Shown here: piece after piece, positions 17,381 to 64,000 of the stretch | Numbering within the stretch: the stretch's first letter is position 1 | Layout of the letters: every line of letters begins with the position of its first letter | Assembly: GCA_045535515.1 (NCBI GenBank) | Contig: JAZSLT010000016.1 | Coordinates: forward strand, 83,802-147,801 | DNA length: 64,000 nt | Origin: Clostridia bacterium | Lineage (GTDB): Bacteria; Bacillota; Clostridia; UMGS1883; UMGS1540 | Direction: 5' to 3' | Program-made: the position numbers and the translations under genes | The notes under the pieces: generated by a model | Seen by the model: the letters and a program-made list of their open reading frames with translations, nothing else | Told to the model about the DNA's origin: nothing | Database searches by the model: none

Positions 17381-18347
17381 GACAATACCTCCAACATTCT
17401 GATAGAAAATCTGTTATCCATAGTGTAAAGTTTGAACCCTTGCCGATGGATGCGGCAAGCGAGATGGCTGCTTCGTGGCAGCAAGCGGCCGCGCGTGGCG
17501 ACACGGAAAAGGCAAATTGCGAAATCGCTGCTTCAAAATCGCGGTTTTGGAGTGCGCCGCCATCGGAAAGCTGCACATAAATACAGTCGCGCATCCACGA
17601 GGAAAAAAGAGCAAGCATAGAGGGAAGGGCGTCTTTGTATTCCTCAAAACAGCGTAGTATGGCATAAATACCGGCCCGTGAGGCGGTAAGACGGGGAAGA
17701 AGCGAAAAAAGCGACTCGCGCATGGCAAGGTATGTCTCATCCTCGGCAAGGCTTGCAGCTGTGCCGATGCTGCCGCCGGCACTTGCCGCCAGAAAGGGCG
17801 CATCTATGGCGCGCTCGGGGAAGTTTTCCCGTATATATTCTTCCAGTTCTCCGTAGGGGCATCCCGTCATTCCCAGCACAATACCGCGCGATAAAACCGT
17901 TTTCAAAAGGGCATCGCGGCTTGTGGTGGTCAATAAAATCGTTACATAGGGGGGCGGCTCCTCAAAGGCCTTCAAAAGCGTGTTTTGCACAGCCGCAGAA
18001 AGCTTTTCCCCGTCAGGAATAATGTACACCTTGCGCTCCGCCAGAAAGGGCTTTACATACATTTCCGCCACAAGCGCGCGCGCTCTTTCTACATGAAACG
18101 GATTTTTTTCATCCGCCTCCACAAAAATCATGTCGGGATGGTTGCCGCTTTTCGTTTTTATGCAGGCGCTGCACCGGCCGCAAGGCGCATCCTCGCCTTC
18201 GCAAAGGAGCATCTCGGCCAGATGGCGGCACAAGGTCTTTTTTCCCATACCAACAGCACCCTCGAAAATATACAGATGTCCGATTGTATGCTTTCGGAGT
18301 GCTGCCTTAAAATATGCTATCTGTTTTTCCTTGCCGTACAGCTTCAA
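17352..18347 (-). CDS. holB: DNA polymerase III subunit delta-prime
   Basis: 331 aa; HLYIFEGAVGMGKKTL Walker-like motif; CGRCSAC zinc module; synteny with yaaT. Confidence 0.75.
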   Translation of the reverse strand: MKLYGKEKQIAYFKAALRKHTIGHLYIFEGAVGMGKKTLCRHLAEMLLCEGEDAPCGRCSACIKTKSGNHPDMIFVEADEKNPFHVERARALVAEMYVKPFLAERKVYIIPDGEKLSAAVQNTLLKAFEEPPPYVTILLTTTSRDALLKTVLSRGIVLGMTGCPYGELEEYIRENFPERAIDAPFLAASAGGSIGTAASLAEDETYLAMRESLFSLLPRLTASRAGIYAILRCFEEYKDALPSMLALFSSWMRDCIYVQLSDGGALQNRDFEAAISQFAFSVSPRAAACCHEAAISLAASIGKGSNFTLWITDFLSECWRYCHDTDSRCQI

Positions 18348-39278: not shown

Positions 39279-40308
39279 GGTGGGGAACATTCCCCTTGGC
39301 GGTCAAAGCCCCGTCACCGTGCAGACGATGACGACGACGGACACGCGGGATGAAAAGAAAACAGTAGAACAAATCCGCCTTTTAGAAAGGGCGGGGGCCG
39401 ATATCGTGCGTCTGGCTGTCCCGGACATGGAGGCGGCCGAGAGCTTTGCCCGCATAAAGCGGCAGGTACAGGTGCCGCTGGTGTGCGACATTCATTTTGA
39501 TTACCGGATTGCCCTTGCCTGTATTTCGGGCGGCGCGGACAAAATACGCATAAACCCCGGTAACATCGGCAGCGAGGAGCGGGTGCGAAAGGTGGCAAAT
39601 GCCGCGAAGGGTGCCGGTATTCCCATTCGTATCGGGGTAAATGGCGGCTCGCTGGAAAAGGAAATGTACGAAAAATACGGAAACACCCCCCGCGCGATGG
39701 TGGAGAGCGCCAAGTACCACGCCTCTCTGCTTGAAAAGGAAGGGTTTTCCGATATCGTGATAAGCCTCAAGGCCTCCGATGTGCAAAAAACGGTGGAGGC
39801 ATACAGACTGATGGCAAGAGAGGGCGATTACCCTTTGCATATTGGGGTAACGGAGGCCGGCACGGCCTATCAGGGCCTCATAAAATCGGCGGCCGGCATC
39901 GGAAGCCTGCTTCTTGACGGTATTGGCGATACGATTCGCGTATCCCTTTCGGCACCGCCCGAGGAGGAGGTGCGTGCCGGCATTGCGCTTTTGCGTGCTG
40001 TTGGGAAAAGGGAGGGCGCGGCGCTTATTTCCTGTCCCACCTGCGGCCGGTGCAAAATTGATTTAATGCCGATAGCGAGAAAAATGGAGGATTACCTCGC
40101 CACCATAAAAGAGCCTATTCGTGTGGCCGTTATGGGTTGTGCGGTCAATGGCCCCGGCGAAGCGCGGGAGGCGCATGTCGGCGTGGCCGGTGGTGACGGA
40201 AAGGCCGTACTTTTCCGCCACGGCGAAATTGTGGAAAGTATACCGGAGGAAAACATCCTGCCGCGACTTATAAGCGAAGTGGAAAGGATTTTAAAAGAGT
40301 GGAAGTAG
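39265..40308 (+). CDS. ispG: 4-hydroxy-3-methylbut-2-enyl diphosphate synthase (flavodoxin)
   Basis: MKKLKVGNIPLGGQSPVTVQTMT...; 4Fe-4S cysteines CPTCGRC...C; overlaps the ctp end. Confidence 0.85.
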   Translation: MKKLKVGNIPLGGQSPVTVQTMTTTDTRDEKKTVEQIRLLERAGADIVRLAVPDMEAAESFARIKRQVQVPLVCDIHFDYRIALACISGGADKIRINPGNIGSEERVRKVANAAKGAGIPIRIGVNGGSLEKEMYEKYGNTPRAMVESAKYHASLLEKEGFSDIVISLKASDVQKTVEAYRLMAREGDYPLHIGVTEAGTAYQGLIKSAAGIGSLLLDGIGDTIRVSLSAPPEEEVRAGIALLRAVGKREGAALISCPTCGRCKIDLMPIARKMEDYLATIKEPIRVAVMGCAVNGPGEAREAHVGVAGGDGKAVLFRHGEIVESIPEENILPRLISEVERILKEWK

Positions 40309-43300
40309 GAAACACCAAAGCAATACAGGAAGTTTTCAGCGGCGCACCGATACCAAAGGGGGCCGCTGCTTTTCGTGTGGTTTCGCTTCGTGTAAATCAA
40401 AGGGAACGGACGATGCAAATTCACTTTCTGCTCCCCGAAATTCCTGACTTTACGGAAATACAAAAGCTGACGAAAGCCCTTATGGCGCACTATGCCTTGG
40501 GAAATGTGGAAAGTGAGTTTTCCTTTGCCGCCTTAACAGCGGAAGAGGGAATAACCGACCGTATCGGCGCGTTTATGACGGGGTATCTCGCCGAGAAAAA
40601 GCCGGTGCTTGCGTATGTTTTAAAGGACAGTACATGGCAGGAAAAGGATGGAGAGCTTATCGTCTGCCTGCATCACGGCGGCGGAGAAATCGTAAAAGAC
40701 CAGGCGGTGGGGCAGGAAATCGGCCGCACCTATTTTGCTTGGACAGGGCGGACGGTGCAGGTGCGCTTTACGGAGGACATGGAAGAGGTGGACCTTTCGG
40801 CAAAGCCGCTTCCCATACCGGCGCGTCCGGCATCTCCCGAAAAAAAGGAAAGCACGCCTTCGGGCAGCCTCGTTTTGGGCAAGAGCATCGACACAGAAAG
40901 AATGGATATTTCGGAAATCAACGAAGGCAGCGGCCGCTGTACGGTGTGCGGCGAGGTGTTCGCGGCCGAGGGGCGCGACATCAAGGAAAAGAAGCTTTTT
41001 ACCTTTAATATAACAGACCGGACCGATTCCATCACCTGTAAGCTGTTTCTCACGGCTGATAAATATGCCGAGGTCAGCGAAAAGGTAAAGAACGGCTCCT
41101 ATGTGGTCGTGCGCGGCAGCGCCGTTTTCGACTCCTTTGCGGGCGAGGTGGTTTTGCGCGTGCAGGATATTGAAATGGCGGAAAAACGCGAGAAGACGGA
41201 CGATGCCGCAGAAAAACGCGTAGAGCTGCATGTACATACACAGATGTCCAGCATGGACGGCGTTTCGAGCGCGACAGCGCTTGTCAAAAGAGCCATCCGC
41301 TACGGGCATCCGGCGATTGCCATTACCGACCATGGTGTGGTGCAGTCCTTTCCCGAAGCCTACAAGGCGGCGAAGGGGTCAGATATTAAGGTTATATTGG
41401 GCGTGGAGGCCTATTATGTAAATGATTTGGGCGCTTCTCTCTATAAAGGGAAATCGTGGCCGATAGATGGCGAAATGGTGGCATTTGACATTGAAACCAC
41501 GGGCCTTAGTCCCAAAACGGAGCGCATCACAGAAATCGGGGCCGTTAAAATCCGCGACGGGGTGATTACGGACACATTTTCCACCTTTGTAAACCCCGGA
41601 AAATCCATTCCGGCAAGAATTATTGAGATTACAGGCATTACCGATGCCATGGTGGCCGACGCGCCACGCGAGGAAGAGGCTGTTCGTGCTTTCCTGGATT
41701 TTTGCGGTGATGCGCCGATTATCGCGCACAATGCCTCCTTTGATACAAGCTTTATAAGGGAGGCCTGCCTTCGGATGGGCGTGCCTTATGCGCCCTCCGT
41801 TTTGGATACATTGGTTTTCTGCCGCGCTATGGTTATCAGTAAGCGGCAGCATTCTCTTGACAAAATGGCCAAATATTTCGGCATTGAAAACCCGTCCCAT
41901 CACCGCGCCGTAAACGATGCACAGGTTTGCGCGCAGATATGGGCGCAGCTTGCAAAGCAGCTTAAAGAAATAGGCGTTTCGGATATTGCCGATATTGATA
42001 AGAAGATGGCAGGAAATGTGGACATGAAGGCCCTGCCGTCCCACCACATGATTTTGCTGGCGAAAAACCGCGAAGGCCTGTTCAATCTGTATACGCTTAT
42101 CACAAAATCGCACATGGATTATTTCCATAAAACACCGCGCATTCCCAAAAGCGAGCTGGTACGCCATCGCGAGGGGCTTCTTGTAGGCTCCGCTTGCGAG
42201 GCGGGCGAGCTGTTTCGGGCGATGGTGGCAGGCGAGAACGAGAATACACTTTTAAAAATAGCGGATTTTTATGATTATCTCGAAATTCAGCCTATCGGCA
42301 ACAACCGGTTTATGCTCGCAAACGGCACCGCTTCGGATGAGGAACAACTGCGGGACTATAACCGGAGGATTATTGCACTTGGCGAAAAGCTCGGAAAGCC
42401 GGTTGTGGCAACAGGAGATGTACACTTTTTAAATCGTGAGGACGAGGTGTACCGCCGTATTCTCATGGCCGGAAAAGGCTTTGATGATGCGGATAATCAG
42501 GCACCCTTGTATTTCCGCACCACGAACGAAATGCTGGAGGAGTTCGGGTATTTGGGGGACGAGATGGCAAGGCGCGTCGTTATTGAAAATCCGCGGGCGA
42601 TTGCGGATAGGATTGAAAATGTGCCGCCCGTTCCGAAAGAAAAATGTCCGCCGGAAATTCCCGGCTCAGATACGGATATTATGCAGATGAGCCGCGAAAA
42701 GGCTGAGCGGATTTATGGTTCGCCGCTCCCCCCGATTGTGCAAAAGCGCATGGACAGGGAGCTGGACAGTATTATCACAAACGGCTTTGCCGTTATGTAT
42801 CTGATTGCCCATAAGCTTGTGAAAAAGTCCAACGAGGACGGGTATCTCGTCGGCTCGCGTGGTTCGGTTGGCTCCTCGTTTGTGGCCTTTTTGTCGGATA
42901 TCACCGAGGTAAATGCCCTGCCGCCGCATTATGTGTGCCAAAAGTGTAAATACAGCGAATTTGTAGAAAATATGGCAGGCTCCGGCTGTGACCTGCCGGA
43001 CAAGAGCTGCCCGAAGTGCGGCGCGCCCCTATATAAGGACGGTCACGATATTCCCTTTGAAACTTTCCTTGGCTTTGACGGCGATAAGGCGCCCGATATT
43101 GACCTTAACTTCTCGGGCGACTATCAGGGACACGCCCATAAGTACACCGAAGTATTATTCGGGGCCGAAAATGTATTCAAGGCCGGCACGATTGGTACGC
43201 TGGCGGAAAAAACGGCATACGGTTATGTGCGCAAATACTTTGAGGAGCGCGGCAAGAGCCTGAGAAAGGCCGAGCTTGACAGGCTCACGATAGGCTGTAC

Positions 43301-44513
43301 CGGCGTAAAACGAACAACGGGTCAGCATCCGGGCGGCATTGTCGTTTTGCCAAAGGGGCGCGATATCAATGAATTTTGCCCTGTCCAGCATCCGGCGGAT
43401 AAAAGCGAAAGCGATGTAAAAACAACGCATTTTGATTATCATTCCATTGACGAAAACCTCCTAAAGCTTGATATCCTCGGACACGACGACCCGACGGTTA
43501 TTCGTATGCTGGAGGATTTGACGGGCATTGATGCCAAAAGCATTCCGCTGGACGATAAGGAAACGATGAGCCTTTTTACCGGCAAGGAAGCCTTAAGGCT
43601 GCAAAGCGACATTAAAAGTACAGTAGGTACGCTGGCTATTCCGGAATTCGGCACAGGGTTTGTGCGGCAGATGCTCCTGGACACAAAGCCCAAAACCTTC
43701 TCCGATTTAATCCGCATAAGCGGACTTTCCCACGGCACCGATGTATGGCTCGGTAATGCGCAGGATATTGTAAGAAGCGGCACGGCGAAGCTTTCGGGCT
43801 GTATCTGTACGCGCGATGACATTATGCTGTACCTGATTACAAAAGGGGTGGCTCCCAAGCTTTCCTTTACCATTATGGAGTCGGTCCGAAAAGGGAAGGG
43901 TTTAAAGCCGGAATGGGAAGAGGAAATGCGGGCGCACGAGGTACCTGCATGGTATATCGATTCCTGTAAAAAGATTAAATATATGTTCCCGAAGGCGCAC
44001 GCGGCGGCCTATGTTACGATGGCGTTTCGTATTGCGTATTGCAAGGTGCATTATCCGCTGGCCTTTTACATGGCGTATTACAGTGTCCGCGCCGATGACT
44101 TTGACTATGCGCTCATGGCAAGCGGTCACGCCGTTGTCCGGGAAAAGATGGCAGAGCTTTCGGCCCTTGAAAACAAAACGCAGAAGGACAAGAATGTTTT
44201 GTCCATTTTAGAGGTGTGCGACGAAATGTATGCGCGCGGCTTCTCCTTCTGCCCGATTGACCTGTACGCCTCCGACGCGGAAAAATTCCGTGAGGTAGAC
44301 GGCAAAATCCTGCCGCCGCTGATCAGTATGCAGGGGCTCGGCTCGGCCGCGGCGCATAATATTGCCAAGGCCAGAGAGGACGGCCCGTTCCTTTCGGTGG
44401 ATGACCTTGTCCAGCGTAGCGGTGCCAACAAATCCGTAATTGAAATTATGACAAAAAGCGGCGTTTTAGCCGATTTGCCCGAGATTAGCCAGACGACCTT
44501 GTTTGGCCTATAG
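40299..44513 (+). CDS. polC: DNA polymerase III PolC-type
   Basis: 1404 aa with a GTG start; OB domain, PHP domain (HVHTQMS), DEDDh exonuclease domain (FDIETTG), polymerase core; N-terminus aligns with Bacillus PolC. Confidence 0.9.
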   Translation: MEVGNTKAIQEVFSGAPIPKGAAAFRVVSLRVNQRERTMQIHFLLPEIPDFTEIQKLTKALMAHYALGNVESEFSFAALTAEEGITDRIGAFMTGYLAEKKPVLAYVLKDSTWQEKDGELIVCLHHGGGEIVKDQAVGQEIGRTYFAWTGRTVQVRFTEDMEEVDLSAKPLPIPARPASPEKKESTPSGSLVLGKSIDTERMDISEINEGSGRCTVCGEVFAAEGRDIKEKKLFTFNITDRTDSITCKLFLTADKYAEVSEKVKNGSYVVVRGSAVFDSFAGEVVLRVQDIEMAEKREKTDDAAEKRVELHVHTQMSSMDGVSSATALVKRAIRYGHPAIAITDHGVVQSFPEAYKAAKGSDIKVILGVEAYYVNDLGASLYKGKSWPIDGEMVAFDIETTGLSPKTERITEIGAVKIRDGVITDTFSTFVNPGKSIPARIIEITGITDAMVADAPREEEAVRAFLDFCGDAPIIAHNASFDTSFIREACLRMGVPYAPSVLDTLVFCRAMVISKRQHSLDKMAKYFGIENPSHHRAVNDAQVCAQIWAQLAKQLKEIGVSDIADIDKKMAGNVDMKALPSHHMILLAKNREGLFNLYTLITKSHMDYFHKTPRIPKSELVRHREGLLVGSACEAGELFRAMVAGENENTLLKIADFYDYLEIQPIGNNRFMLANGTASDEEQLRDYNRRIIALGEKLGKPVVATGDVHFLNREDEVYRRILMAGKGFDDADNQAPLYFRTTNEMLEEFGYLGDEMARRVVIENPRAIADRIENVPPVPKEKCPPEIPGSDTDIMQMSREKAERIYGSPLPPIVQKRMDRELDSIITNGFAVMYLIAHKLVKKSNEDGYLVGSRGSVGSSFVAFLSDITEVNALPPHYVCQKCKYSEFVENMAGSGCDLPDKSCPKCGAPLYKDGHDIPFETFLGFDGDKAPDIDLNFSGDYQGHAHKYTEVLFGAENVFKAGTIGTLAEKTAYGYVRKYFEERGKSLRKAELDRLTIGCTGVKRTTGQHPGGIVVLPKGRDINEFCPVQHPADKSESDVKTTHFDYHSIDENLLKLDILGHDDPTVIRMLEDLTGIDAKSIPLDDKETMSLFTGKEALRLQSDIKSTVGTLAIPEFGTGFVRQMLLDTKPKTFSDLIRISGLSHGTDVWLGNAQDIVRSGTAKLSGCICTRDDIMLYLITKGVAPKLSFTIMESVRKGKGLKPEWEEEMRAHEVPAWYIDSCKKIKYMFPKAHAAAYVTMAFRIAYCKVHYPLAFYMAYYSVRADDFDYALMASGHAVVREKMAELSALENKTQKDKNVLSILEVCDEMYARGFSFCPIDLYASDAEKFREVDGKILPPLISMQGLGSAAAHNIAKAREDGPFLSVDDLVQRSGANKSVIEIMTKSGVLADLPEISQTTLFGL

Positions 44514-53433: not shown

Positions 53434-53670
53434 TTATTTGAATGCGACTGCAAGCACAACAGAGAGAATGATGAACAATACAGCCAGAATTACAGTCCAC
53501 TTTTCCAAAATACCGTTTAAGGTCTTGCCTCTGTTCTTGCCAAAAAAGTTATCGGCATTGCCACCGGCAATCGTACCGGAAAGACCTGCATCCTTACCAT
53601 CCTGCAGAAGAACAACGGCAGAAAGAAGAACCGTAACGACTATATGTATAATCGTAAACGCCATTTTCAT
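53434..53670 (-). CDS. secG: preprotein translocase subunit SecG
   Basis: MKMAFTIIHIVVTVLLSAVVLLQDGKDAGLSG...; two TM segments. Confidence 0.75.
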   Translation of the reverse strand: MKMAFTIIHIVVTVLLSAVVLLQDGKDAGLSGTIAGGNADNFFGKNRGKTLNGILEKWTVILAVLFIILSVVLAVAFK

Positions 53671-53814
53671 AGCTACACCCCCCAAATTAATTTCATATTC
53701 TGTAGTGTACCACATATTTGTATATTTTACAAGGTTTTTTCAAAAATTTATCACAAAAAAGACTTTTTATTTTTCAAATGGGCGTGGGAAAACAGAACCG
53801 AGCGGAAGACAGCG

Positions 53815-56800
53815 GTGGCGGGACTGCGTTCCAAACAGAAACAGGACCTTGCAAAGCGGGCGGCGATGCAGTCGATTACGAAAGCAGGCGTGGCGAATGC
53901 AATGCCTTCCTCTGACGGCATACAGGAGGCATCGGGTTTTGTTGGAGAATACACCGGGAAAAGCTACACCAAAAAAGAAGCGGAACTATTAGCATTGATA
54001 TCAGACGAAGGTATTGCAAACGCCGGAGAAGCAAGACCTGGGACAATATCGCAAAGCATTTTGGGCGTAAGCAGTGATGTGTGGCAAGCGTTCAAAGATG
54101 CAGGCTTTGTCGGCGACGATAACTTTGCTATGGACTTTATTATAATGGACGAAAGAGAACGCCGGCATAAAGAACGAAATAATGTGAAAAGCACGCCGGG
54201 TATAACTTTGCCGACTGCTGAAACGGCCGGGCAGGGGATAATGCTGCCCACGGCAAAAGACACTATGGGGTGGGTAGGCGGAACAGAATACGGTGGCATA
54301 ACGGGGGAGGCTGCCTCTTTCCGAATTGGGCGTACTGTGGAAAACAAACCGTTTGTAGAGATTGAGGAAGATATTTTAGACGGTATACCTGAAGAAGAAT
54401 GGACAAAAAAGGTTAATGAAAACTTAAGAAATAAGTTTCCTAATGGGATTGCTATAGGTAAAGATACAATAAAAATCAACCAGAAGAGCAGGCGGGAAAT
54501 GACATTTTCTGCGTACATGCAATGGCTTAGAAAAAACGAACCCCAGGCGTTTTCGGACAAGCTAAGAGCAACGAACAATGCCGATGAATTAGTTTTAGCC
54601 GCCGAAAATTGGGTAAACGAAGGCGCAAAACACGGCAGAAAAGACACGATTTCCAGCTTCGCACGAGGAAATGTATTGATGAAGGTCGGCGGCAACAACT
54701 ATTCGGCGGATGTGGTTGTCGGCATAAAAAATACTGGGGAAGCGCTCTTGTACGATGTTATAAATTTGCAACCGACAACCATAACAGAAAATGAGACGAA
54801 TGCATTGAATACCGAGTACCCGTCACCGGGAGTCGATAGAAACAATGCATCCGTCTCTAATGACAGTATATCACAATCCGCCCCGAATAGTCAAGAAAAT
54901 ACTGCCGGAAATATTTTTGACGGTCATGTCCTTCCCACTGCGAAAGAGCAAATGGAGCAGGCGAAGAGAGAAAAAAGGGCGGCAAAGGCAAAAACGGAGG
55001 TGGAGCGGACAGGTATTCTTCTGGGCGTTCCGGACAAGATTATTCAGGCGGCAAAGCGGATTTCAAAGGTGCTCGGCATAGAGGTATGCTTTTATCGAAA
55101 TACTGGCGGGAAGGTGAAAAACGATAAGGGCTATTATAACCGCGACGGCAGGAAGATTTATCTGAATGCCGAAATTACGGACCCTGTTGCGTTTATCTTG
55201 GGACATGAAATGATACATCACATCCAGCTGACAAAGAGCTATCTGAAATTTGCGGACACAATACTCAAGAAAATACTGCAGGATGGCGGGGACCTGGATG
55301 CAATGCGGCAGGAGCTGAAGGAACGCTACGCCGAAAACGGTGTAAAGCTTGATACTATGGCCGAGGTAGACCAGGATGTAATTGCAGAGTATGCGCAGGA
55401 GCATCTTTTTACGGACGAGGCAAGTATTATTTCTGTTGTAAACGCCGATAAAGAAGGCGGAAGTATAATAGCACGCTTTTTGGATACTGTACTGGCAAAG
55501 TTTGGGGATAAAGACGCACAGGAGCGGGCATTCGTGCAAAGGGCGCGCTCTCTGTATGCTAAGGCACTTCGGGAAAGCAATAGAGAAGGGCAGGCGAACA
55601 CCTATAAAAGCGAGACCGTGCTGGCCGGAGGTGGAGAAGCCACAAAACAGGCAGAGGGACATGTTCTGCCTACTACGAAAGATATGATGGCGCAAGGGGA
55701 CAGAACGAATACACGCGCCACGGCGTTGGATACCATGGAGGACGCGGAATACGATGCAAGAATGGAAGTTCTCGAGGCGGAGAGAAGCATGGCGGGCGAA
55801 AGCATGCTTTATGATGACGGGAGGCAGTTTGCTATCGGTGGGAAAAAAGGGATTGAAAAACACAATGCGAAAGGATATAATAATATAAATAAAAAAGAGG
55901 AAGGAGAAAGATATGCCGATACTGGAAAATATGACAGTGTCAGAGAGACACAATTACGAACGAATGAAGAAACGGGGATATACGGACGAAGAAATCAAAA
56001 AGACGCTACTGGAAATCCGAGCGATACCAAAGGAAACCAAGGAACGCCTTTGCCGCTTGATAGGAGAGAAAATGACGGTGACATCCCAAAACGAGGAATA
56101 ATAAGGAGCGTTTTTCATGGGACGCCATATCGATTTAAAACCTTCTTTAAAAGCTATATTGATATAGGAATTCATTTTGGGACCAAAGCGCAGGCGGAGG
56201 CGAGGCTTTCGAACGAGAATGGACATGTCGACGAATTTGACTTAAGATTAGACAATCCACTTGTTATAAAGGATATTTTTGGAGAGAAAATGGCAGAACA
56301 ATACGCCGCGGCAGTTTTGAGAGATTCAAAGCTTTCAGAAGACGAGAAAAAGGTTTTTGAAAAAGAGTTTCGCGACTTTTTGAATACTGACATTAAAGTG
56401 ATGGCGGCCGATTCTCTTGAGAAAAAAATACTTGAAGGCAGACACAGGATAAACACAGAAATTCGGGCAAACGGTATTTATGTCACCTTGGCCTTGGTTG
56501 ATGACAACTCTAACATTAATGAAATTCCGATGGCGGAACTTATTGATAAAAACAAGTTGGTTGAAATTTTAGGATTTGAGGATACAGTCCGAGCGCTTAA
56601 AGAGGGAAACTTGCCCGAAACGGCGAGAGAAAAATTAAATCCATACATTCTTGAAGCAATACTTCCGTTTGAAAAACAGTACTTGCAACTCCGCAAAATC
56701 GAGGGCATATTACAATCCTTCGGCTATGATGGCTTTGCCTATAAAAACAAAAACGAAGGAGAGGGATGGTCGTACGCTGTTTTTGACGACAGCCAAATCA

Positions 56801-58074
56801 TCAGAAAGACGGACAAAAAGGATGATGGCGTAACGGGGCGCCAATACGCCATCGCCAAAGAACCAGAAGACAGAAGAATAGACGAGCTTCCGAAAAAAGC
56901 ACAGACGGCACTTCGACAGACCGAAAGCAGGCTATCGGAACGCATTGGAGAAATTCTCGGCGTACCGAGGCGCGCGCAAAGAGATTTTCTTCAGGGCATC
57001 ATCCGGGATATATCGGAAGATTGCCTGCAAAGCGGCATGATAGACCGAACGAAAGCGGACGCGCTTTTTGAGGAAGCGTACAAGCAGGGCGTTGTGGTGG
57101 ATGCAGAATACTTTGAGCGTTACAAGCACATTCGAGACCACCTGCGAAACACACAGCTTACCATATCCGAGGAGGACAGGTCAAGTATAGCTGACTTTGA
57201 CGCGTTCCGGAAAAGTGCTTTCGGGAAGCTTCGTATCGTAAACGAGGGCGGACTGCCGGTGGATGTTGCATACGAAGAACTTGAAGACATGGCGCCGGAA
57301 TTATTTCCGGAAGACATTACCCATCCTGCTGACCAGCTGCAGCATATGTTTGAGATAGCGGACGGTATACGAAAAACAGAGCAGACGCTGAATGAAGCCT
57401 ACGGGGAAGAGGCCGAAACCTTCAAGGCCGCGGCAAAAGACGAATTTCATGCGGCGCTCAATTCTGCAGCGGTGGATTTCAAACGAGTCAAGCGTTATGC
57501 TGAAAGCCGAAGCAGACTTTTCGAAGAACAGGAAGCAGAGAAAAAGGGAAGTATACAAAGTCGAGAGGAACTGGACGAGGCGTATAAAAACTTAAAAACA
57601 GCCCGGCGAAACTTGGAAAAGGTAAAGCGAAGCGTGCTACTGACAGAACAGGACGAGATGCGCGTGGGGCAGCTCTTGCGGGGAGAAATAAGCCCTGTGA
57701 TGTTAAACCCGGAACAAGACAATGTAAAAGACATTATAGCGGTGTATCGCGCAAAGCAGGAATACGAAAATTACGCAAGGCGCATCCGTGATTGGAATGC
57801 AAAACGGAAGGAAGGGCTGCGCGCGCAGGCCCGGGAATACTTAGCCAATATCCAGAAATGGAAGGATAAGGTGCACTTTGGCGGTCTTCGCTATTCGCGG
57901 GAGACGATGGAGCGAAACTTCCGGGACATTATGGGCGAGGATGCAGAGGGTCTTATTGCGGAATATCTTACTCCCGTACATAAGGCGCAGGCGGATATTA
58001 TCTATCGTTTTATTACAAAAAACAGAAACGCCATTGCTTTTCCTGCGAAAATAATGTATACTATTATGCGTTGA
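53815..58074 (+). CDS. giant multidomain protein (about 1,420 aa; polyvalent-protein-like): repeated LPT[AT] motifs, zincin HExxH module, possible ART-like segment, C-terminal alpha-helical/coiled-coil region
   Basis: Single uninterrupted ORF (track 53644-58074). The 5' part of the track ORF is AT-rich promoter-like sequence, so the start is probably GTG 53815 (GGAAGA 5 nt upstream) or ATG 53866. Motifs seen: ITLPTAE, IMLPTAKDTM, HVLPTAKEQM, HVLPTTKDMM, and HEMIHH. GC is lower than in the flanks. Confidence 0.6.
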   Translation: MAGLRSKQKQDLAKRAAMQSITKAGVANAMPSSDGIQEASGFVGEYTGKSYTKKEAELLALISDEGIANAGEARPGTISQSILGVSSDVWQAFKDAGFVGDDNFAMDFIIMDERERRHKERNNVKSTPGITLPTAETAGQGIMLPTAKDTMGWVGGTEYGGITGEAASFRIGRTVENKPFVEIEEDILDGIPEEEWTKKVNENLRNKFPNGIAIGKDTIKINQKSRREMTFSAYMQWLRKNEPQAFSDKLRATNNADELVLAAENWVNEGAKHGRKDTISSFARGNVLMKVGGNNYSADVVVGIKNTGEALLYDVINLQPTTITENETNALNTEYPSPGVDRNNASVSNDSISQSAPNSQENTAGNIFDGHVLPTAKEQMEQAKREKRAAKAKTEVERTGILLGVPDKIIQAAKRISKVLGIEVCFYRNTGGKVKNDKGYYNRDGRKIYLNAEITDPVAFILGHEMIHHIQLTKSYLKFADTILKKILQDGGDLDAMRQELKERYAENGVKLDTMAEVDQDVIAEYAQEHLFTDEASIISVVNADKEGGSIIARFLDTVLAKFGDKDAQERAFVQRARSLYAKALRESNREGQANTYKSETVLAGGGEATKQAEGHVLPTTKDMMAQGDRTNTRATALDTMEDAEYDARMEVLEAERSMAGESMLYDDGRQFAIGGKKGIEKHNAKGYNNINKKEEGERYADTGKYDSVRETQLRTNEETGIYGRRNQKDATGNPSDTKGNQGTPLPLDRRENDGDIPKRGIIRSVFHGTPYRFKTFFKSYIDIGIHFGTKAQAEARLSNENGHVDEFDLRLDNPLVIKDIFGEKMAEQYAAAVLRDSKLSEDEKKVFEKEFRDFLNTDIKVMAADSLEKKILEGRHRINTEIRANGIYVTLALVDDNSNINEIPMAELIDKNKLVEILGFEDTVRALKEGNLPETAREKLNPYILEAILPFEKQYLQLRKIEGILQSFGYDGFAYKNKNEGEGWSYAVFDDSQIIRKTDKKDDGVTGRQYAIAKEPEDRRIDELPKKAQTALRQTESRLSERIGEILGVPRRAQRDFLQGIIRDISEDCLQSGMIDRTKADALFEEAYKQGVVVDAEYFERYKHIRDHLRNTQLTISEEDRSSIADFDAFRKSAFGKLRIVNEGGLPVDVAYEELEDMAPELFPEDITHPADQLQHMFEIADGIRKTEQTLNEAYGEEAETFKAAAKDEFHAALNSAAVDFKRVKRYAESRSRLFEEQEAEKKGSIQSREELDEAYKNLKTARRNLEKVKRSVLLTEQDEMRVGQLLRGEISPVMLNPEQDNVKDIIAVYRAKQEYENYARRIRDWNAKRKEGLRAQAREYLANIQKWKDKVHFGGLRYSRETMERNFRDIMGEDAEGLIAEYLTPVHKAQADIIYRFITKNRNAIAFPAKIMYTIMR

Positions 58075-58098
58075 GGTTTTGGAAGGAAGGGATACGAA

Positions 58099-58740
58099 GT
58101 GACAACGATGCTTCTGGTGCGTCATGGCGAAAGCGTAGCCAACCGCGAAGGCTTTTTCGGCGGTCAGCTGGATATAGACCTTGTGGAAAATGGCGTTTTG
58201 CAGGCAAGAAAAGCGGCCGAGTACATAAGCACCCATTACGCGCCCCGAGCAGTATATGCAAGCGATTTGAAAAGGGCATGGCAAACCGGAGCGATTATTG
58301 CAGACCGGATAGGAAAACCCCTGACGGCCCAAAAAAGCCTTCGGGAGATTTATGCAGGCCAGTGGGAGGGTATGTCGTTTTCGGAAATTCCGCAAAAATT
58401 TCCGCTGGCGTACAAAATATGGCGCGAGGACTTAGGACACGCCCGTTGCCCCGGCGGCGAGAGCGTGTCGGAGCTTGGGGAAAGAGTGCTGAAAGCGCTG
58501 ACCGATATTGCAGAGGAAAACGAAGGCAAAACGGTTGTGGTGGCCACCCATGCGCTTCCCATACGCGCTATGGAGAGCATAGTAGACAGCGGATTTGCAG
58601 AGAATATAAAAGCGTATCCGGCCGTTTCCAACGCCTCGGTTTCGGAGCTTACCTACGAAAACGGCACATGGTGCATCGTGCAAATGGGAATCGATTTTTA
58701 TATGGGCGACCTTTGCACGCTGCTGCCGGACAGAATATAA
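58099..58740 (+). CDS. histidine phosphatase family protein (phosphoglycerate-mutase-like / CobC-like)
   Basis: GTG start; LLVRHGES catalytic RHG motif; ATHALPIRAM second His motif. Confidence 0.75.
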   Translation: MTTMLLVRHGESVANREGFFGGQLDIDLVENGVLQARKAAEYISTHYAPRAVYASDLKRAWQTGAIIADRIGKPLTAQKSLREIYAGQWEGMSFSEIPQKFPLAYKIWREDLGHARCPGGESVSELGERVLKALTDIAEENEGKTVVVATHALPIRAMESIVDSGFAENIKAYPAVSNASVSELTYENGTWCIVQMGIDFYMGDLCTLLPDRI

Positions 58741-58757
58741 AGAATGTGGAGGACATT

Positions 58758-60194
58758 ATGAATAAAATACTGGCAGAGCCACGGGCGGTTTTTGAAAAGC
58801 TGGAAGAAATCTGCGCCATTCCGCACGGCTCGGGCGATATGCAGAAAATCAGCGATTTTTGCGTAGCCTTTGCAAAGAAGAACGGACTTCGGTATATACA
58901 GGACGAGGCCTTGAATGTGGTTATTTATAAAGAGGGTACCTGTCATCTGAAGAACGCCGCCCCCATTATATTGCAGGGGCATCTGGACATGGTTTGCCAG
59001 AAGGAAGAGGGGAGCGCGGTCAATTTTGCAAAGGACGGTATCCTTCCCTTTATCGAAGGGGACTTTGTACGGGCAAAGGGGACAACCCTCGGAGCCGACA
59101 ACGGAATTGCGGTGGCGATGATTATGGCCATTTTAGAAAGGGAGGACATAGCACATCCGCCGATTGAAGCCGTGTTTACCACCGATGAGGAAATCGGTAT
59201 GGTTGGTGCCGGTCGGCTCGATATGTCCGTTTTGTCGTCAAAAAGAATGATAAACCTTGATGCGGAGGAGGATGACACCTTGACCGTATCGTGCGCCGGC
59301 GGATGCGATGTGCACCTTTGCCTTCCGATAAGTCGGGAAAAGAAGGAAGGTACGAGAGTGACCCTTCGTGTGCGCGGCCTCTTAGGCGGCCACTCGGGCG
59401 TGGAGATTGATAAGGGAAGAGTGAACGCCAATGTTCTTTTGGGAAGGCTTTTGACGCATGCCCGAAAAGAGGAGGCCGACATTCTTTCTGTAAATGGCGG
59501 CAGTAAGGGAAATGCCATTCCCGGAAGCGGTACGGCCAGCCTCTTGGTTCGGGACTGGGAAGCCTTTTCCGGCTTTATGAAGCCTTATATTGAGGTCGTA
59601 CAAAACGAAATCCGCGACAGGGAAACGGAAGTATGCATCACGCTGGAAAAAGAGGACGAGGGAAGCTTTCTTATCATGGAAAAATCCGGCACGGACAAGT
59701 TTATCCATTTGCTGCTGGCAGTACCGGACGGCGTAATAGATTGGAGCCGGACTATCCCCGGTCTTGTGGAAACCTCCTTAAATCTCGGCATACTGGAAAC
59801 GAAAGAGGACGGCGTGCATTTTCACTACGCGCTCCGAAGTAATAAGCGCACGGCGCTTTCTGCGCTGAAGGAAAAAATCGCCGCAATCGCCGGATATGTT
59901 TCCGTTTCGTATAATACGGGAGGAGAATATAGCCCTTGGGAGTACAGGGAAAACTCTGCTCTTCGCACTTTGTATGCCGAAACCTACCGCGAAATGCAAG
60001 GCGAGGCGCTCCGGATTGCCGCCATTCATGCAGGACTCGAATGTGCCGTGTTCGCGGCCGCAATCGATGGCCTTGATTGTATTGCCATAGGCCCCACCAT
60101 GACAGGGGTGCACACGCCGGACGAGGCGCTTAGGATTTCCTCGGTGCAGAAGGTGTACGCGCTTTTGTGCGAAACCCTTAAAAAATGTGAGTAA
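58758..60194 (+). CDS. pepD: aminoacyl-histidine dipeptidase (PepD, M20C)
   Basis: MNKILAEP...; HLDMVCQKE, DNGIAVAMIMA, TTDEEIGMVGA M20 motifs; RBS GGAGG. Confidence 0.8.
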   Translation: MNKILAEPRAVFEKLEEICAIPHGSGDMQKISDFCVAFAKKNGLRYIQDEALNVVIYKEGTCHLKNAAPIILQGHLDMVCQKEEGSAVNFAKDGILPFIEGDFVRAKGTTLGADNGIAVAMIMAILEREDIAHPPIEAVFTTDEEIGMVGAGRLDMSVLSSKRMINLDAEEDDTLTVSCAGGCDVHLCLPISREKKEGTRVTLRVRGLLGGHSGVEIDKGRVNANVLLGRLLTHARKEEADILSVNGGSKGNAIPGSGTASLLVRDWEAFSGFMKPYIEVVQNEIRDRETEVCITLEKEDEGSFLIMEKSGTDKFIHLLLAVPDGVIDWSRTIPGLVETSLNLGILETKEDGVHFHYALRSNKRTALSALKEKIAAIAGYVSVSYNTGGEYSPWEYRENSALRTLYAETYREMQGEALRIAAIHAGLECAVFAAAIDGLDCIAIGPTMTGVHTPDEALRISSVQKVYALLCETLKKCE

Positions 60195-60266
60195 AAGCAC
60201 TTGCTTTTTTTCTTTCTTATGGTATACTATAAAAAAATGTCGCAAAGCGACGGAACGGAGAAGAAA

Positions 60267-62171
60267 ATGGAAAAGAAACCGTTTACGCCGTATATTCCGG
60301 CCGAAAAAATCACACCGGAAACTACGGTAACCTCTATCATCATGGGTATTATTCTGGCGGTTGTATTCGGTGCCGCGAACGCCTACTTAGGCCTTCGCGT
60401 GGGGATGACCGTTTCCGCATCCATACCGGCGGCCGTTATCGCGATGGGTGTTATCCGTGTTCTGATGCGGAAGAACTCTATTTTGGAGAGCAATCTGGTG
60501 CAGACCATCGGCTCCGCCGGTGAATCCCTTGCGGCCGGTGCTATCTTTACGCTGCCGGCGCTCTTTTTGTGGGCGGCCGAGGGCAAGACTGCGAACCCCG
60601 GGATTTTGGAAATCACCATTATCGCCCTTATCGGTGGTCTTTTAGGCGTATTTTTCATGGTACCCCTCAGAAACGCCCTCATCGTAAAAGAACATGGCAT
60701 CCTGCCGTACCCCGAAGGGACGGCGTGTGCCGAGGTGCTTTTGGCCGGCGAAAAAGGCGGCGCGAACGCCTCCACCGTATTTGCCGGTATGGGCTTTGCC
60801 GCTCTTTTCAAGTTTATTATTGACGGTCTTCGTCTCGTAGCCGGTGAAATTTCCGTTACCATAAAAGGCTTTGCCGGCACAATCGGAACACAGATTTATC
60901 CGGCCGTTATGAGCGTTGGCTATATCTGCGGCGCGAAGATTTCTTCGTATATGTTCGCCGGCGGCCTTTTCAGCTGGCTGGTGCTTATCCCGATGATTGT
61001 GTTGTTTGGCGAAAACATCATTCTGTATCCCGGCACAACCACCATCGGGGAGATGTACGCTGCAGGCGGAGCCGGTACTATCTGGGGAACTTATATACGG
61101 TATATCGGCGCCGGTGCCCTGGCGGCCGGTGGTATTATCAGCCTTATAAAATCCCTGCCGCTGATTATCAAAACCTTTGCCGGCGCTATCCAGAGCGTGG
61201 CGGGCGGACGGGAAAAGACAACGGCGCGCACCGAAACGGATATCAGCCTTAAGGTGGTGCTTGGTGCCATTATTCTCCTTACCCTTTTGGTGTGGCTGGT
61301 GCCGGCAATCCCCGTAAATCCCTTGGGTGCCTGTGTGGTTGTGGTTTTTGGTTTCTTTTTTGCCACCGTATCCTCGCGTATGGTCGGTCTTGTAGGCAGC
61401 AGCAATAACCCTGTATCCGGCATGGCGATTGCCACGCTCCTGATTGCCACCCTTCTTCTGAAGTTTACAGGCAGTACAGGCATAGCCGGCATGACAAGCG
61501 CGATTGCCATCGGCTCCATTATCTGTATTGTTTCGGCTATTGCCGGTGATACCTCGCAGGACCTTAAAACGGGCTACCTTTTAGGCGCTACGCCGAAAAA
61601 GCAGCAGATAGGGGAAATCCTCGGCGTTATCGCCGCGGCGCTTGCTATTGGCGGCACCTTGTATCTTCTCGATAGTGCTTGGGGCTTTGGAACAGACGAA
61701 CTGGCGGCACCGCAGGCGATGCTGATGAAACTGATTATCGAAGGCGTTATGGAAGGAAACCTCCCGTGGACGCTGGTGCTGATTGGCGTATGTATTGCCA
61801 TCGCCGTAGAAGTGGTCGGTATTCCGGTTCTGCCCTTTGCGATTGGTGTGTATCTGCCTGTACAGCTCAACGCCTGCATTATGGTAGGAGGACTTGTGCG
61901 TCTCGGCATAGAGAAATCAAAGAAGAGCGCAGAAGAAAAGGAAAAAGCATTAAACCGCGGAACGCTCTTTTGTTCCGGTATGATTGCCGGTGAAGGCCTT
62001 GTGGGTATTGCGCTGGCGCTCCTTGCCGTAGTCGGCGTAGATAAAATGCTCGATTTATCGGCGAAGTTGGCTATTCCGACGGCAGTATCCGAAATTGGCG
62101 GTCTTCTCCTGTTTGCCGTTATTATTCTGACCGTTTTGAAATTCTCCCTGCAAAAGAAAAGAGAGAAATAA
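60267..62171 (+). CDS. OPT-family oligopeptide transporter
   Basis: At least 14 TM helices; the N-terminal region has typical OPT-family features; start uncertain (60201, 60237 or 60267). Confidence 0.75.
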   Translation: MEKKPFTPYIPAEKITPETTVTSIIMGIILAVVFGAANAYLGLRVGMTVSASIPAAVIAMGVIRVLMRKNSILESNLVQTIGSAGESLAAGAIFTLPALFLWAAEGKTANPGILEITIIALIGGLLGVFFMVPLRNALIVKEHGILPYPEGTACAEVLLAGEKGGANASTVFAGMGFAALFKFIIDGLRLVAGEISVTIKGFAGTIGTQIYPAVMSVGYICGAKISSYMFAGGLFSWLVLIPMIVLFGENIILYPGTTTIGEMYAAGGAGTIWGTYIRYIGAGALAAGGIISLIKSLPLIIKTFAGAIQSVAGGREKTTARTETDISLKVVLGAIILLTLLVWLVPAIPVNPLGACVVVVFGFFFATVSSRMVGLVGSSNNPVSGMAIATLLIATLLLKFTGSTGIAGMTSAIAIGSIICIVSAIAGDTSQDLKTGYLLGATPKKQQIGEILGVIAAALAIGGTLYLLDSAWGFGTDELAAPQAMLMKLIIEGVMEGNLPWTLVLIGVCIAIAVEVVGIPVLPFAIGVYLPVQLNACIMVGGLVRLGIEKSKKSAEEKEKALNRGTLFCSGMIAGEGLVGIALALLAVVGVDKMLDLSAKLAIPTAVSEIGGLLLFAVIILTVLKFSLQKKREK

Positions 62172-62506
62172 TGAAAAAAGCAGAAAATTATCTGGAAAGA
62201 AAACCGATGCCCGCAAAAACGATTTCCTGGAAGGTAGAGGAAGAAAAGGTCACCATATCAGTAGAAAATCGCGGCATGTGGAACAGAATTTTGCAAAAAC
62301 TCCTCGCGAGGCCGAAGATAAGCTACATTCATCTGGATACATTCGGCAGCTTCGTTTTCCGGGAGATGGACGGCGAGAAAACGATTTTAGAGATTGGAGA
62401 AAGGGTGGAAGCCGTTTTCGGGGAAGAGGCCAATCCGCTGTATGAAAGACTGGCCACCTTTTGCGCAAGACTGGAAAGCTATGGGTTTATTTCTTTCACC
62501 GACTAA
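62171..62506 (+). CDS. PqqD-family (RRE-like) small protein
   Basis: 111 aa; ...FVFREMDGEKTILEIGERVEAVFG...YERLATFCARLESYGFISF matches the PqqD pattern; its start overlaps the OPT stop (TAATG). Confidence 0.6.
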   Translation: MKKAENYLERKPMPAKTISWKVEEEKVTISVENRGMWNRILQKLLARPKISYIHLDTFGSFVFREMDGEKTILEIGERVEAVFGEEANPLYERLATFCARLESYGFISFTD

Positions 62507-62519
62507 TAAGAATTTCGGA

Positions 62520-62556
62520 GTCTGTAAAGGGAAACTTTACAGACCCTTTCTTTTTT
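62520..62556 (+). terminator. rho-independent terminator
   Basis: GTCTGTAAAG-ggaa-ACTTTACAGAC followed by CCTTTCTTTTTT. Confidence 0.65.
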
Positions 62557-62557
62557 G

Positions 62558-62583
62558 ACCCTATAACTTTATTTTCTGTGGAA
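62558..62583 (+). repeat. left 26-bp terminal inverted repeat
   Basis: See the cassette entry. Confidence 0.6.
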
Positions 62584-62704
62584 CGGACTTTTCGCCCTAA
62601 TCTCAAAGAGATTTTGAAGTTATATGTAATTAATTACAAAAAGTTGATTGTGTTGACTAAAACCATTAAAAATGATAATATAAATTGCAAGAAAGCACTA
62701 TCAA

Positions 62705-62735
62705 GAGCCTCCCTTGTGTAAAGGGAGGTGGGCTC
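62705..62735 (+). repeat. hairpin (CCTCCCTT-GTGTA-AAGGGAGG); inverted copy of the terminator hairpin at 63130-63158
   Basis: The two 19-mers CTCCCTTGTGTAAAGGGAG and CTCCCTTTACACAAGGGAG are exact reverse complements and flank the DUF559 CDS. Confidence 0.5.
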
Positions 62736-62758
62736 TAAAGCAACTCGGAGGGATTGTA

Positions 62759-63127
62759 ATGGATTATAAACACAATAAAGGAATTGTACCACTTGCAAAA
62801 GCACTACGAAAAAATATGACAAAAGAAGAAAAGCACCTTTGGTATGACTACTTAAGACAATACCCTATTAGGTTTATAAGACAGAAAGTTATAGGAAAAT
62901 ATATTGTTGATTTTTACTGTGCCAAAGCAAAGCTTGTTATCGAATTAGATGGCTCACAACATTATGATAATAAAGAAATGGAAAAGGATGCTTTGAGAAC
63001 AGAGTTTTTAGAACAATATGGATTAAAAGTTATAAGAATATCAAATCTTGATATAAGTAAAAACTTCGAGGGAGTATGTATATTTATTGATAATGAAGTC
63101 AAGCAATCCCTCAGTCAACTTCGTTGA
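62759..63127 (+). CDS. DUF559 endonuclease-domain protein (Vsr/REase-like fold)
   Basis: 122 aa from MDYKHNKG...; YIVDFYCAKAKLVIELDGSQH is characteristic of DUF559; RBS GGAGGG; low GC. Confidence 0.65.
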   Translation: MDYKHNKGIVPLAKALRKNMTKEEKHLWYDYLRQYPIRFIRQKVIGKYIVDFYCAKAKLVIELDGSQHYDNKEMEKDALRTEFLEQYGLKVIRISNLDISKNFEGVCIFIDNEVKQSLSQLR

Positions 63128-63129
63128 CA

Positions 63130-63158
63130 GCTCCCTTTACACAAGGGAGCCTTTTTTA
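63130..63158 (+). terminator. rho-independent terminator (inverted copy of the 62705 hairpin)
   Basis: GCTCCCTT-TACAC-AAGGGAGC followed by CTTTTTT. Confidence 0.65.
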
Positions 63159-63434
63159 TAAGTGTCATTTATAAGTGTCGGAAAATTGCGGAAGATTCTC
63201 CAACCGCACTTTTTTATTGATTTTACCCCCTAAAAAGCATAGTTTTTTAGAAAAATTAATAAGCAAATATATAAAAGTGTTGTTTTTTTCCTTCTTCGGG
63301 GATATCCACCAGAAGGAGATAACCCGAGCAGGGCACTTTGCTGCAAATGCAGTAAACCCATTGACGGAACACAAGATAAATGTTATACTATATATAGAAA
63401 ATATTTCAAATATTATATAAAGTGGAGTAAATAT

Positions 63435-63839
63435 ATGAAGATAGAATATAAAAATATTCATAATTTTAATTGTAGTGAATTGGAGAGATTATTTCTCTCT
63501 GTTGAGTGGTCTTCAGGTCATTTCCCCGAAAAACTTGTTGTTGCAATGAAAAACTTTAATACAGTTTATTCTGCTTGGGACGGGGATAAATTAGTGGGAA
63601 TGATATGTGTTATGGATGACGGGATAATGAATGCTTATGTTCATTATCTACTTGTTGACCCTGAATATCATAAGAAAACTATTGGCAGAACATTGGTTGA
63701 TATGGTAAAGCAAAAGTATAAAGAATATATGCGTATCATAGTGATTGCTTATGATAGTGAGCAACATTTCTATAATGCTTGTGGATTTGAAAAAAGTAAT
63801 CAATCTTCACCAATGTTTATAACAACCTTGTGGACATAA
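63435..63839 (+). CDS. GNAT-family N-acetyltransferase
   Basis: 134 aa; acetyl-CoA motif VDPEYHKKTIGRTLV; low GC. Confidence 0.7.
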   Translation: MKIEYKNIHNFNCSELERLFLSVEWSSGHFPEKLVVAMKNFNTVYSAWDGDKLVGMICVMDDGIMNAYVHYLLVDPEYHKKTIGRTLVDMVKQKYKEYMRIIVIAYDSEQHFYNACGFEKSNQSSPMFITTLWT

Positions 63840-63857
63840 CCCTATAAGTTATTGTAA

Positions 63858-63890
63858 AAGGATAAAGTTAAGTGCTTTATCCTTTTTTAT
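63858..63890 (+). terminator. rho-independent terminator
   Basis: AAGGATAAAG-ttaagtg-CTTTATCCTT followed by TTTT. Confidence 0.65.
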
Positions 63891-63942
63891 TTTGCAGAAT
63901 ACAAAAGTGCTATTTTTATGCGAAATCTCAACAAAAAAATTA

Positions 63943-63968
63943 TTCCACAGAAAATAAAGTTATAGGGT
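63943..63968 (-). repeat. right 26-bp terminal inverted repeat
   Basis: Exact reverse complement of 62558-62583. Confidence 0.6.
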
Positions 63969-64000
63969 TTTGACAGGGAAATTGACGAGACGGGATTTTT

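Follow-up and report, generated by a model that had tools for sequence, protein, structure and literature searches.

The polyvalent proteins described by Iyer et al. in 2017 (PMC5512222) combine several unrelated modules, such as LPD3, a zincin-like metallopeptidase (MPTase) and the ADP-ribosyltransferase (ART) module ART-PolyVal, in one polypeptide, and processing of the polyprotein by its MPTase has been proposed for the family. Roughly the remaining quarter of the published set is context-free; these copies are described as host-retained remnants that may be used defensively (PMC5512222). Here we analyze a 64,000-nucleotide stretch (the window) of contig JAZSLT010000016.1 from a Clostridia bacterium (assembly GCA_045535515.1), in which a single giant gene lies next to secG. 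The giant gene is an internal fragment of a phage gene, with both ends of the phage protein gone, and judged by its sequence it belongs to the polyvalent proteins. We consider it likely that it is a stranded piece of such a gene and the relic of a temperate phage that was once integrated beside secG.

The giant gene is like the polyvalent proteins in its several unrelated modules and in the phage provenance of its relatives, and like their third class, which has no mobile-element neighbours (PMC5512222), in its solitary chromosomal setting. It differs in being truncated at both ends and in having a long helical C-terminal domain for which there is no Pfam or PHROG model. Term searches of PMC5512222 returned neither the LPTAK linker motif nor the clustered breakpoints described below. 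The giant full-length relatives, which have hydrophobic segments and follow a phrog_511 gene, also resemble the podovirus-like ejection proteins (T7 gp14-16, N4 gp50 and DEV gp72), and N4-like virion proteins likewise carry MPTase and ART modules (PMC5512222). This likeness is purely one of synteny (DEV gp72 appeared at a Foldseek E of 1.9), and the window copy is without the hydrophobic parts. T4 Alt and P1 DarB/DdrB are similar in the functional model, that of a head-packed enzyme (ART or other) injected with the DNA, and P1 DdrB is proteolytically processed and carries an MPTase (PMC5512222); the homology link to them runs only through the ART-PolyVal family, and the window copy has no virion. 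Finally, the cryptic-prophage remnants found beside tRNA genes have counterparts in three related loci (L001, L046 and L012) at tRNA 3' ends, and share foreign composition and absence in relatives. The window copy differs from them in having no tRNA, integrase or att repeat, and in being a fragment of a single gene, which is the same gene each time. Context-free polyvalent remnants are thus a known phenomenon, and there is no novel host effector or secretion system here.

An internal fragment of a phage gene beside secG

A single frame is open on the + strand from 53644 to 58074, and the NCBI protein model P0001, which comes from a contig of 154 kb and is 100% identical to the window frame, begins within it at a GTG codon with GGAAG six bases 5' of it (coordinates of the features are collected in Table 1). 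Its closest relative is P0002 (2,051 amino acids, aa), with 72% identity over aa 346-1393 by BLASTP. At the nucleotide level, window segments 53788-53926, 54865-55572 and 55740-57994 match the P0002 locus, L001, at 71-79% (blastn). P0002 extends about 120 residues further N-terminally, where it has a glycine-rich hydrophobic segment, and runs about 600 residues past the window break at the C-terminal side; P0002 and a second close relative, P0003, themselves start some 430 residues later than P0115, P0020 and P0009. The relatives have a hydrophobic segment near each end, and P0001 has none, nor any signal segment (maximum Kyte-Doolittle value over 19 residues, 0.96).

At the 3' side, homology to P0002 and P0003 ends after CAGGCGG. 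Matches to a profile spanning this break are uninterrupted in the best 150 of 1,485 matching clusters, whose proteins all have roughly 900-3,900 aa, and in 80 viral loci, so the window copy has been cut in mid-domain. At the 5' side, the AT-rich DNA of 53671-53775 aligns upstream of secG in three related genomes (L013, L014 and L024), -35 and -10 elements included, and the junction between native and phage DNA lies at about 53776-53787. Since phage homology starts only at 53788 and the DNA upstream of it is conserved with secG, what might be taken for a promoter of the giant gene is that of secG. A consensus scan 5' of the giant gene gave no + strand promoter, and the same scan gave no terminator between the giant ORF (open reading frame) and the phosphatase gene.

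The composition of the giant gene is foreign. Its GC content is 0.466, and its GC at third codon positions (GC3) 0.476, against 0.52-0.54 and 0.57-0.62 in the housekeeping genes of the window, and it ranks 15th lowest in GC among 598 windows of equal length. Its codon-usage distance of 0.121 compares with 0.04-0.07 for housekeeping genes of similar length (PolC, SMC and Clp ATPase), which places it two to three times farther from the housekeeping pool than these.

The three related genomes retain the order secG-rnr-smpB-DUF512-der (RNase R 66-75% and Der 88-93% identical), and beside secG they have an EF-G/TetM-like GTPase gene (850 aa) and argC/J/B/D, none of which is present in the window. 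Both the polyvalent gene and the phosphatase operon are absent at their secG junction. Because three relatives are without the gene at secG, we regard it as an acquisition at a synteny breakpoint. L013 belongs to the same assembly as P0002, whose copy sits at another locus.

By Pfam, the left flank in the window comprises der, DUF512, smpB, rnr and secG, and the right flank His_Phos_1, an M20 peptidase (pepD-like), OPT and a PqqD-like gene. No tRNA or tmRNA occurs anywhere in the window, and the other proteins of phages L009, L044 and L045 have no match there. The integrase, att repeats and structural or transfer genes of an intact prophage or ICE (integrative and conjugative element) are missing at the locus, whose flanks are housekeeping genes; the phage or conjugative-element gene context of polyvalent proteins is likewise absent in the window and present for the full-length relatives.

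An earlier note, made from the sequence of the window alone, had thus correctly described a low-GC gene between housekeeping genes with no phage or conjugation genes around it. Its suggestion of horizontal acquisition, and the check it proposed at the secG junction of relatives, agree with the foreign composition and with the three genomes that lack an orthologue there. It was also right that the last codons run into the TATACT and ribosome-binding-site region of the phosphatase gene; these are the 26 codons without a homologue. The lone giant ORF that it reported stands, with its start moved from 53671, which is the first base past the secG ATG, to the modelled 53815. The promoter that it assigned to the gene, AT-rich and divergent from secG, has to be given up in favor of the conserved secG promoter.

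The surroundings call for a few further remarks. The pepD-like/OPT/PqqD-like trio (window 58737-62506) is kept in other metagenome contigs (L029 and L030; OPT 82% identical). As the trio has no phosphatase gene upstream in these contigs, the position of the phosphatase gene is variable too. A PepD-based metagenome scan for the native region 5' of the phosphatase gene gave best matches 57% identical, also without that gene. Positions 62500-64000 (GC 0.30-0.33, GC3 0.25-0.27), which hold a DUF559 endonuclease-like gene (62714-63127) and a GNAT acetyltransferase gene (63435-63839) and run off the window end, are a second foreign insert, unrelated to the giant gene. The other large genes checked in the window (PolC, SMC, Clp ATPase, ArgRS and others) are housekeeping genes. 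Among them, a 1,404-aa ORF at 40299-44513 was rejected as a second giant gene of interest when it proved to be PolC. A GC-skew switch at about 53.6 kb was rejected as a replication origin, the skew following gene orientation across the window.

Table 1. Positions of the features discussed (in the window unless another locus is named; a slash marks the point where homology is lost)
Feature	Position	Strand	Remarks
Phage-derived DNA, internal polyvalent-gene fragment	53788..57994	+	blastn against L001 (gene of P0002)
P0001 ORF (public protein model)	53815..58074	+	1,419 aa; GTG start; stop codon 58072-58074
Tandem LPTAE/LPTAK junction motifs	54208..54261	+	ITLPTAETAGQGIMLPTAKDTM; kept in P0002 and P0016; 91% nucleotide identity to L048
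LPD3 module	54310..54888	+	aa 166-358; Pfam LPD3 E 8.4e-5
Zincin-like metallopeptidase module	54931..55614	+	aa 373-600; begins at LPTAKEQM junction; HEMIH 55204-55218
Fourth LPT motif and K/N/E-rich low-complexity linker	55666..56094	+	LPTTKDMM; aa 618-760
ART-PolyVal ADP-ribosyltransferase module	56065..56844	+	aa 751-1005; Pfam E 7.5e-3; insert of ~90 aa
Helical C-terminal domain, first half	56827..57993	+	aa 1005-1393; cut in mid-domain
Non-homologous tail and phosphatase leader	57995..58098	+	codons 1394-1419 (26 codons); TATACT 58057-58062
Shared break position	window 57985-57995; L002 14216-14226; L047 ~2400; L048 ~2290		...CATAAGGCGCAGGCGG
Break sequences	window; L002; L047; L048		...CAGGCGG/AT; ...CAGGCGG/AG; ...GCAGG/AG; ...AAGGCAG/AA
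C-terminal region without Pfam or PHROG model	L001 13877-14839		equivalents in L044, L045, L049-L128
P0002	L001		between MiaB-like gene and dprA; ORF runs into tRNA-Met
P0003	L002		Gate / Se_S_carrier setting; in 15 contigs
P0006	L006		solitary copy
P0004	L011		3' truncated at q1362
P0016	L012		5' truncated; tRNA-Leu 320 nt downstream
P0021	L046		tRNA-Met 19 nt downstream
P0128	L047		upstream of dprA, locus as L001; internal AEY..AEY deletion; split in two ORFs
P0126	L048		2.8-kb contig; huge internal deletion; ORF runs into sigma-factor gene
secG	53434..53670	-	Pfam SecG E 3.8e-21; 81-87% identical to secG of L013, L014, L024
Native secG promoter and leader	53671..53787		aligns with secG-upstream DNA of L013, L014, L024 to ~53775
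Histidine-phosphatase gene	58099..58740	+	Pfam His_Phos_1; right-hand neighbour
secG-adjacent GTPase/arg regions	L013 5417-9790; L014 6279-9036; L024 3156-5912		synteny breakpoint relative to window 53671

Modules of the giant protein

The one ORF carries several unrelated modules: LPD3, a zincin-like module, ART-PolyVal and a helical domain. The Pfam scores of the window protein itself are all below the curated cut-offs (LPD3 23.2 of 27 bits, DUF6782 19.5 of 27 and ART-PolyVal 17.5 of 31.2), and its homologues P0003, P0006 and P0015 pass the cut-offs for ART-PolyVal, LPD3, LPD23 and DUF6782. A search of 5.8 billion proteins yielded 148 homologues, mostly of 2,000-2,400 aa, whose precomputed domains include LPD3, ART-PolyVal, LPD23, LPD38, MuF_C and PBECR. 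The LPD3 block is the most widely shared, being covered by 114 of 120 homologues with up to 61% identity, and the equivalent block of P0003 passes the Pfam cut-off.

The zincin-like module matches the phrog_87 metalloprotease in PHROG (E 1.5e-5) and DUF6782 in Pfam (E 6e-4). Its HExxH motif is invariant in 17 of 17 aligned homologues (H97, E98 and H101), and the glutamate of a downstream AEY is kept in most aligned rows, with K or D in some. In the AlphaFold2 model of the module (pLDDT, the model's confidence score, 85.5) the predicted order is H40-53, E56-60, E72-75, E80-84, H90-104 (with HExxH) and H148-163. This modelled topology of a helix, three strands, the HExxH helix and more helices fits a zincin, and the same topology has been described for MPTases (PMC5512222). 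The best Foldseek match of the model, to an M. tuberculosis regulator, was not significant (E 0.06), and sequence searches of the PDB with the zincin and C-terminal profiles reached only E 0.08-0.7 at best. Toward the adjoining K/N/E-rich linker the zincin model ends with low pLDDT. Within that linker (window 55750-56050, aa 646-745) the ratio of nonsynonymous to synonymous substitution (dN/dS) relative to P0002 is 0.84, and dS is 0.28 compared with about 1.1-1.5 elsewhere; these values may reflect recent recombination or relaxed constraint.

ART-PolyVal (Pfam PF18760) is an H-Y-D ADP-ribosyltransferase family, and the score of the window protein for it falls short of the cut-off because the insert noted in Table 1, which is common to P0001 and P0002, splits the domain. 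In alignment with the ART modules of P0003 (42.7 bits) and P0006 (45.4 bits) the invariant H is retained, and the conserved blocks are VxH.TP, DIGxHFGT and YDGxxYxNxxEGxGxS...F.D.QII. The C-terminal domain is predicted to be all-helical (AlphaFold2, pLDDT 79); it has no counterpart in PDB, Pfam or PHROG, and Foldseek gave nothing below E 0.19 for its model.

LPT motifs start at nt 54208, 54244, 54931 and 55666, and three of the four have the form G-x-[VM]-LPT[AT]K[DE]-x-M. The 120 homologues contain 78 LPT, where 28 are expected from composition, and these lie at module junctions. The form G-x-[VIM]-LPTAK-[ED]-x-M recurs at the module junctions of the closest homologues. The earlier note had counted these motifs and given their form correctly, and the HExxH motif that it had picked out holds up as a motif. 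Its comparison with polyvalent architecture is upheld by the sub-threshold matches of the protein, the above-threshold matches of its homologues and the PHROG metalloprotease match. The alpha-helical C-terminal half of 600 aa that it described shrinks to a helical domain of about 390 aa, as the stretch before it is the ART module with a helical insert.

Relatives in phages and at other chromosomal loci

Full-length relatives of 2,000-4,000 aa are encoded in temperate phages of about 40 kb, P0029, P0017 and P0020 (2,240-2,442 aa) among them. Phage loci L009, L010, L044 and L045 contain a tail fibre gene, a phrog_511 internal virion protein (E 1e-53 to 1e-77), an M15 lysin and an integrase. The order is tail fibre (Gp58/Peptidase_S74), a small gene, the phrog_511 gene (~530 aa), a gene of ~440 aa and the giant gene, with lysis genes and the integrase near the latter. 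L044 has no further phage gene between the giant gene and the host cotJ genes, and about 49 of 75 IMG/VR contigs end at most 6.8 kb from its stop codon. By synteny and the family model, the full-length protein is probably located inside the capsid and ejected. We also note that in L044 the polyvalent gene is followed (17330-18230) by a 66-aa ORF, a 35-aa Mn_catalase (CotJC-like) stub and cotJA/cotJB; the spore-coat gene cotJC may have been the insertion site of this prophage.

The C-terminal domain has a wide distribution. Its profile retrieved the 1,485 clusters mentioned above (at 50% identity) and 186 IMG/VR stretches, and in the best 150 clusters and 80 viral loci the proteins that carry it are mostly 2,000-4,000 aa long, the shortest complete ones having about 860-1,300. 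Motifs of the region are VSEAHAVQLLGEA.DNI, RNGYEPV.YR.GYFPHF and LPTTINGLTHTFKP. A scan of IMG/VR with a single protein gave no confirmed relative, the matches having come with the C-terminal profile, and tblastn against GenBank phages gave two weak matches, both to unannotated faecal contigs.

The closest homologues of the window protein are themselves solitary and truncated. Six of them lie between housekeeping genes at different loci (L001, L002, L006, L011, L012 and L046), and L047 and L048 are only partly bounded, L047 beginning at a contig end and L048 being on a contig of 2.8 kb. P0003 is identical in all its 15 contigs, which come from several metagenomes (JGI, ENA and NCBI data). A tRNA 3' end adjoins three of the solitary copies (tRNA-Met at L001 and L046, tRNA-Leu at L012). 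Such tRNA-adjacent junctions, and the position of the gene at the edge of the prophage, are in keeping with integrated prophages in decay. As a separate observation, L047 (1-2550) and L001 (10001-16366) have polyvalent fragments at one host locus, upstream of dprA-DUF2232-gdpP-rplI-dnaB. The L047 fragment is 84% identical in nucleotide sequence to the window copy versus 75% to L001, has another module order and is without the tRNA-Met.

Origin and fate of the fragment

In the phage stage the gene of the giant protein would have stood at the distal edge of the virion genes, just after an internal-virion-protein gene and often next to host DNA. By analogy with its family, and from the synteny of its relatives, the protein would have travelled inside the capsid and entered the cell along with the DNA on ejection. 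Its zincin-like peptidase may then have cut the polyprotein at module junctions, with the G-x-V-LPTAK-E/D-x-M linkers as candidate cut sites, and the freed ART and LPD modules would have acted on host targets. Deletions or illegitimate joining would later have left the codons equivalent to about 120-1452 of P0002, joined at the 5' end to the secG promoter region and at the 3' end to a point about 100 nt upstream of the phosphatase gene. Fused in this way, the frame would stay open only to the first chance stop codon. Delivery would now be impossible, since neither the hydrophobic parts at the N and C terminus nor the latter half of the C-terminal domain nor the virion remains, and the window copy is most likely a young, non-functional relic.

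Several observations weigh against this history. The secG locus has no integrase, att site or tRNA, and no donor phage was found by the single-protein scan of IMG/VR or by tblastn against GenBank phages. Neither a stop nor a frameshift interrupts the 4.2-kb frame, and the zincin and ART catalytic motifs are intact. Relative to P0002 and P0003, dN/dS is 0.10-0.14 pairwise and 0.07 on the window branch, with no sign of relaxation, where dS is about 1 and near saturation and the branch also spans the phage phase. Homology breaks off within the same 9 nt in four truncated copies that sit at different host loci, and five copies have their 5' ends in a span of about 140 codons around hydrophobic segments. 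Moreover, the surviving gene is the polyvalent gene in all 8 genomes, each time without the hydrophobic N-terminus.

The intact frame, the conserved HExxH and ART motifs and the low dN/dS favor an exapted host gene, in which case selection would maintain the solitary copies for their product, a multi-enzyme protein of the cytoplasm that might, for instance, counter phages or plasmids entering the cell. This has been proposed for context-free polyvalent proteins by Iyer et al. (PMC5512222). The GTG start with GGAAG before it, the solitary copies in at least 7 genomes that lost the same parts each time (hydrophobic N-terminus and C-terminus) and the identity of P0003 across its contigs point in the same direction. 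We nevertheless consider exaptation unlikely. Three relatives lack the gene here, and its position differs from genome to genome, which argues for turnover and not conservation. Furthermore, the window copy is cut inside a conserved domain, half of which is gone, and has no promoter of its own, and L047 and L048 are visibly decaying. PADLOC returned no family at E <= 0.01 for P0001 or P0002 and NCBIfam no match for the giant protein, and the low dN/dS can stem from the phage phase.

The clustered ends and the survival of one gene also weigh against random decay, as random decay predicts neither. They raise the possibility, to our minds a slim one, that a specific process creates or keeps solitary copies, be it repeated domestication of the enzymatic core against mobile elements or a defined DNA end or recombination site. 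The latter could be a phage genome end, an att site in the gene or a fragile (GCG)n run, and it would steer the capture of phage DNA in Clostridial chromosomes. The four breaks have different host genes about 100-150 nt downstream of them, and the 5' ends of these four copies vary. Past the break, the tails of the window copy and L002 do not align and share no mobile-element end or target duplication. P0001 resembles P0002, which is intact there, more closely in the C-terminal region than it resembles P0003, so the shared break was not simply inherited. Two close intact relatives have a (GCG)3-4 run exactly at the break (L001, GCGCAGGCGGCGGCGACGCGG; L006, GCGGCGGCGGC), and our favored guess is that this GC-rich trinucleotide run is a candidate hot spot of illegitimate recombination, with an att site internal to the gene or the end of the phage DNA as alternative candidates. 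A homologue search with the 161 aa preceding the break returned nothing. The clustered 5' ends could reflect selection against membrane-active parts.

The earlier note had read the giant gene as an autonomous, self-processing effector secreted or injected by this bacterium. The multidomain layout with a peptidase, an ART and repeated linker motifs is in keeping with that proposal, which has become very unlikely: both termini of the parent protein are missing, there is no signal peptide, hydrophobic segment or promoter of its own, and the window has no secretion, conjugation or virion genes. Members of the family, moreover, are carried into cells by phage capsids or mobile-element type IV secretion and not by the host (PMC5512222). 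It seems equally improbable that the fragment is a remnant of a conjugative element (an ICE or plasmid) instead of a phage. About 40% of polyvalent proteins are in conjugative elements (PMC5512222), and LPD3, the peptidase and ART are found in both element types, but all full-length relatives with a context are in phage modules (tail fibre, internal virion protein, lysin and integrase), the C-terminal domain occurs in IMG/VR stretches, and no type IV secretion or relaxase gene was seen in any locus. An assembly chimera, with phage reads joined between two chromosomal pieces, is hardly credible even though the source is apparently a contig of a metagenome-assembled genome and synteny with relatives breaks at secG, since the junctions lie in continuous sequence without a repeat to cause a mis-join, a fragment internal to the gene at both ends is not what a chimera favors, and similar solitary loci recur independently, P0003 in contigs from three sources.

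On the reading that we prefer, a stranded phage fragment, the gene should be annotated as a truncated phage polyvalent-protein remnant and not as a host effector or a core-genome "hypothetical protein", and its position records a synteny breakpoint and an earlier phage integration next to secG. Together with the undescribed C-terminal domain (about 1,500 clusters), the recurrent solitary fragments in related gut or rumen Clostridia point to a poorly studied class of phage ejection/polyvalent proteins. Should the solitary copies turn out to have a function, they would offer a case on which to test whether hosts capture phage counter-defence enzymes.

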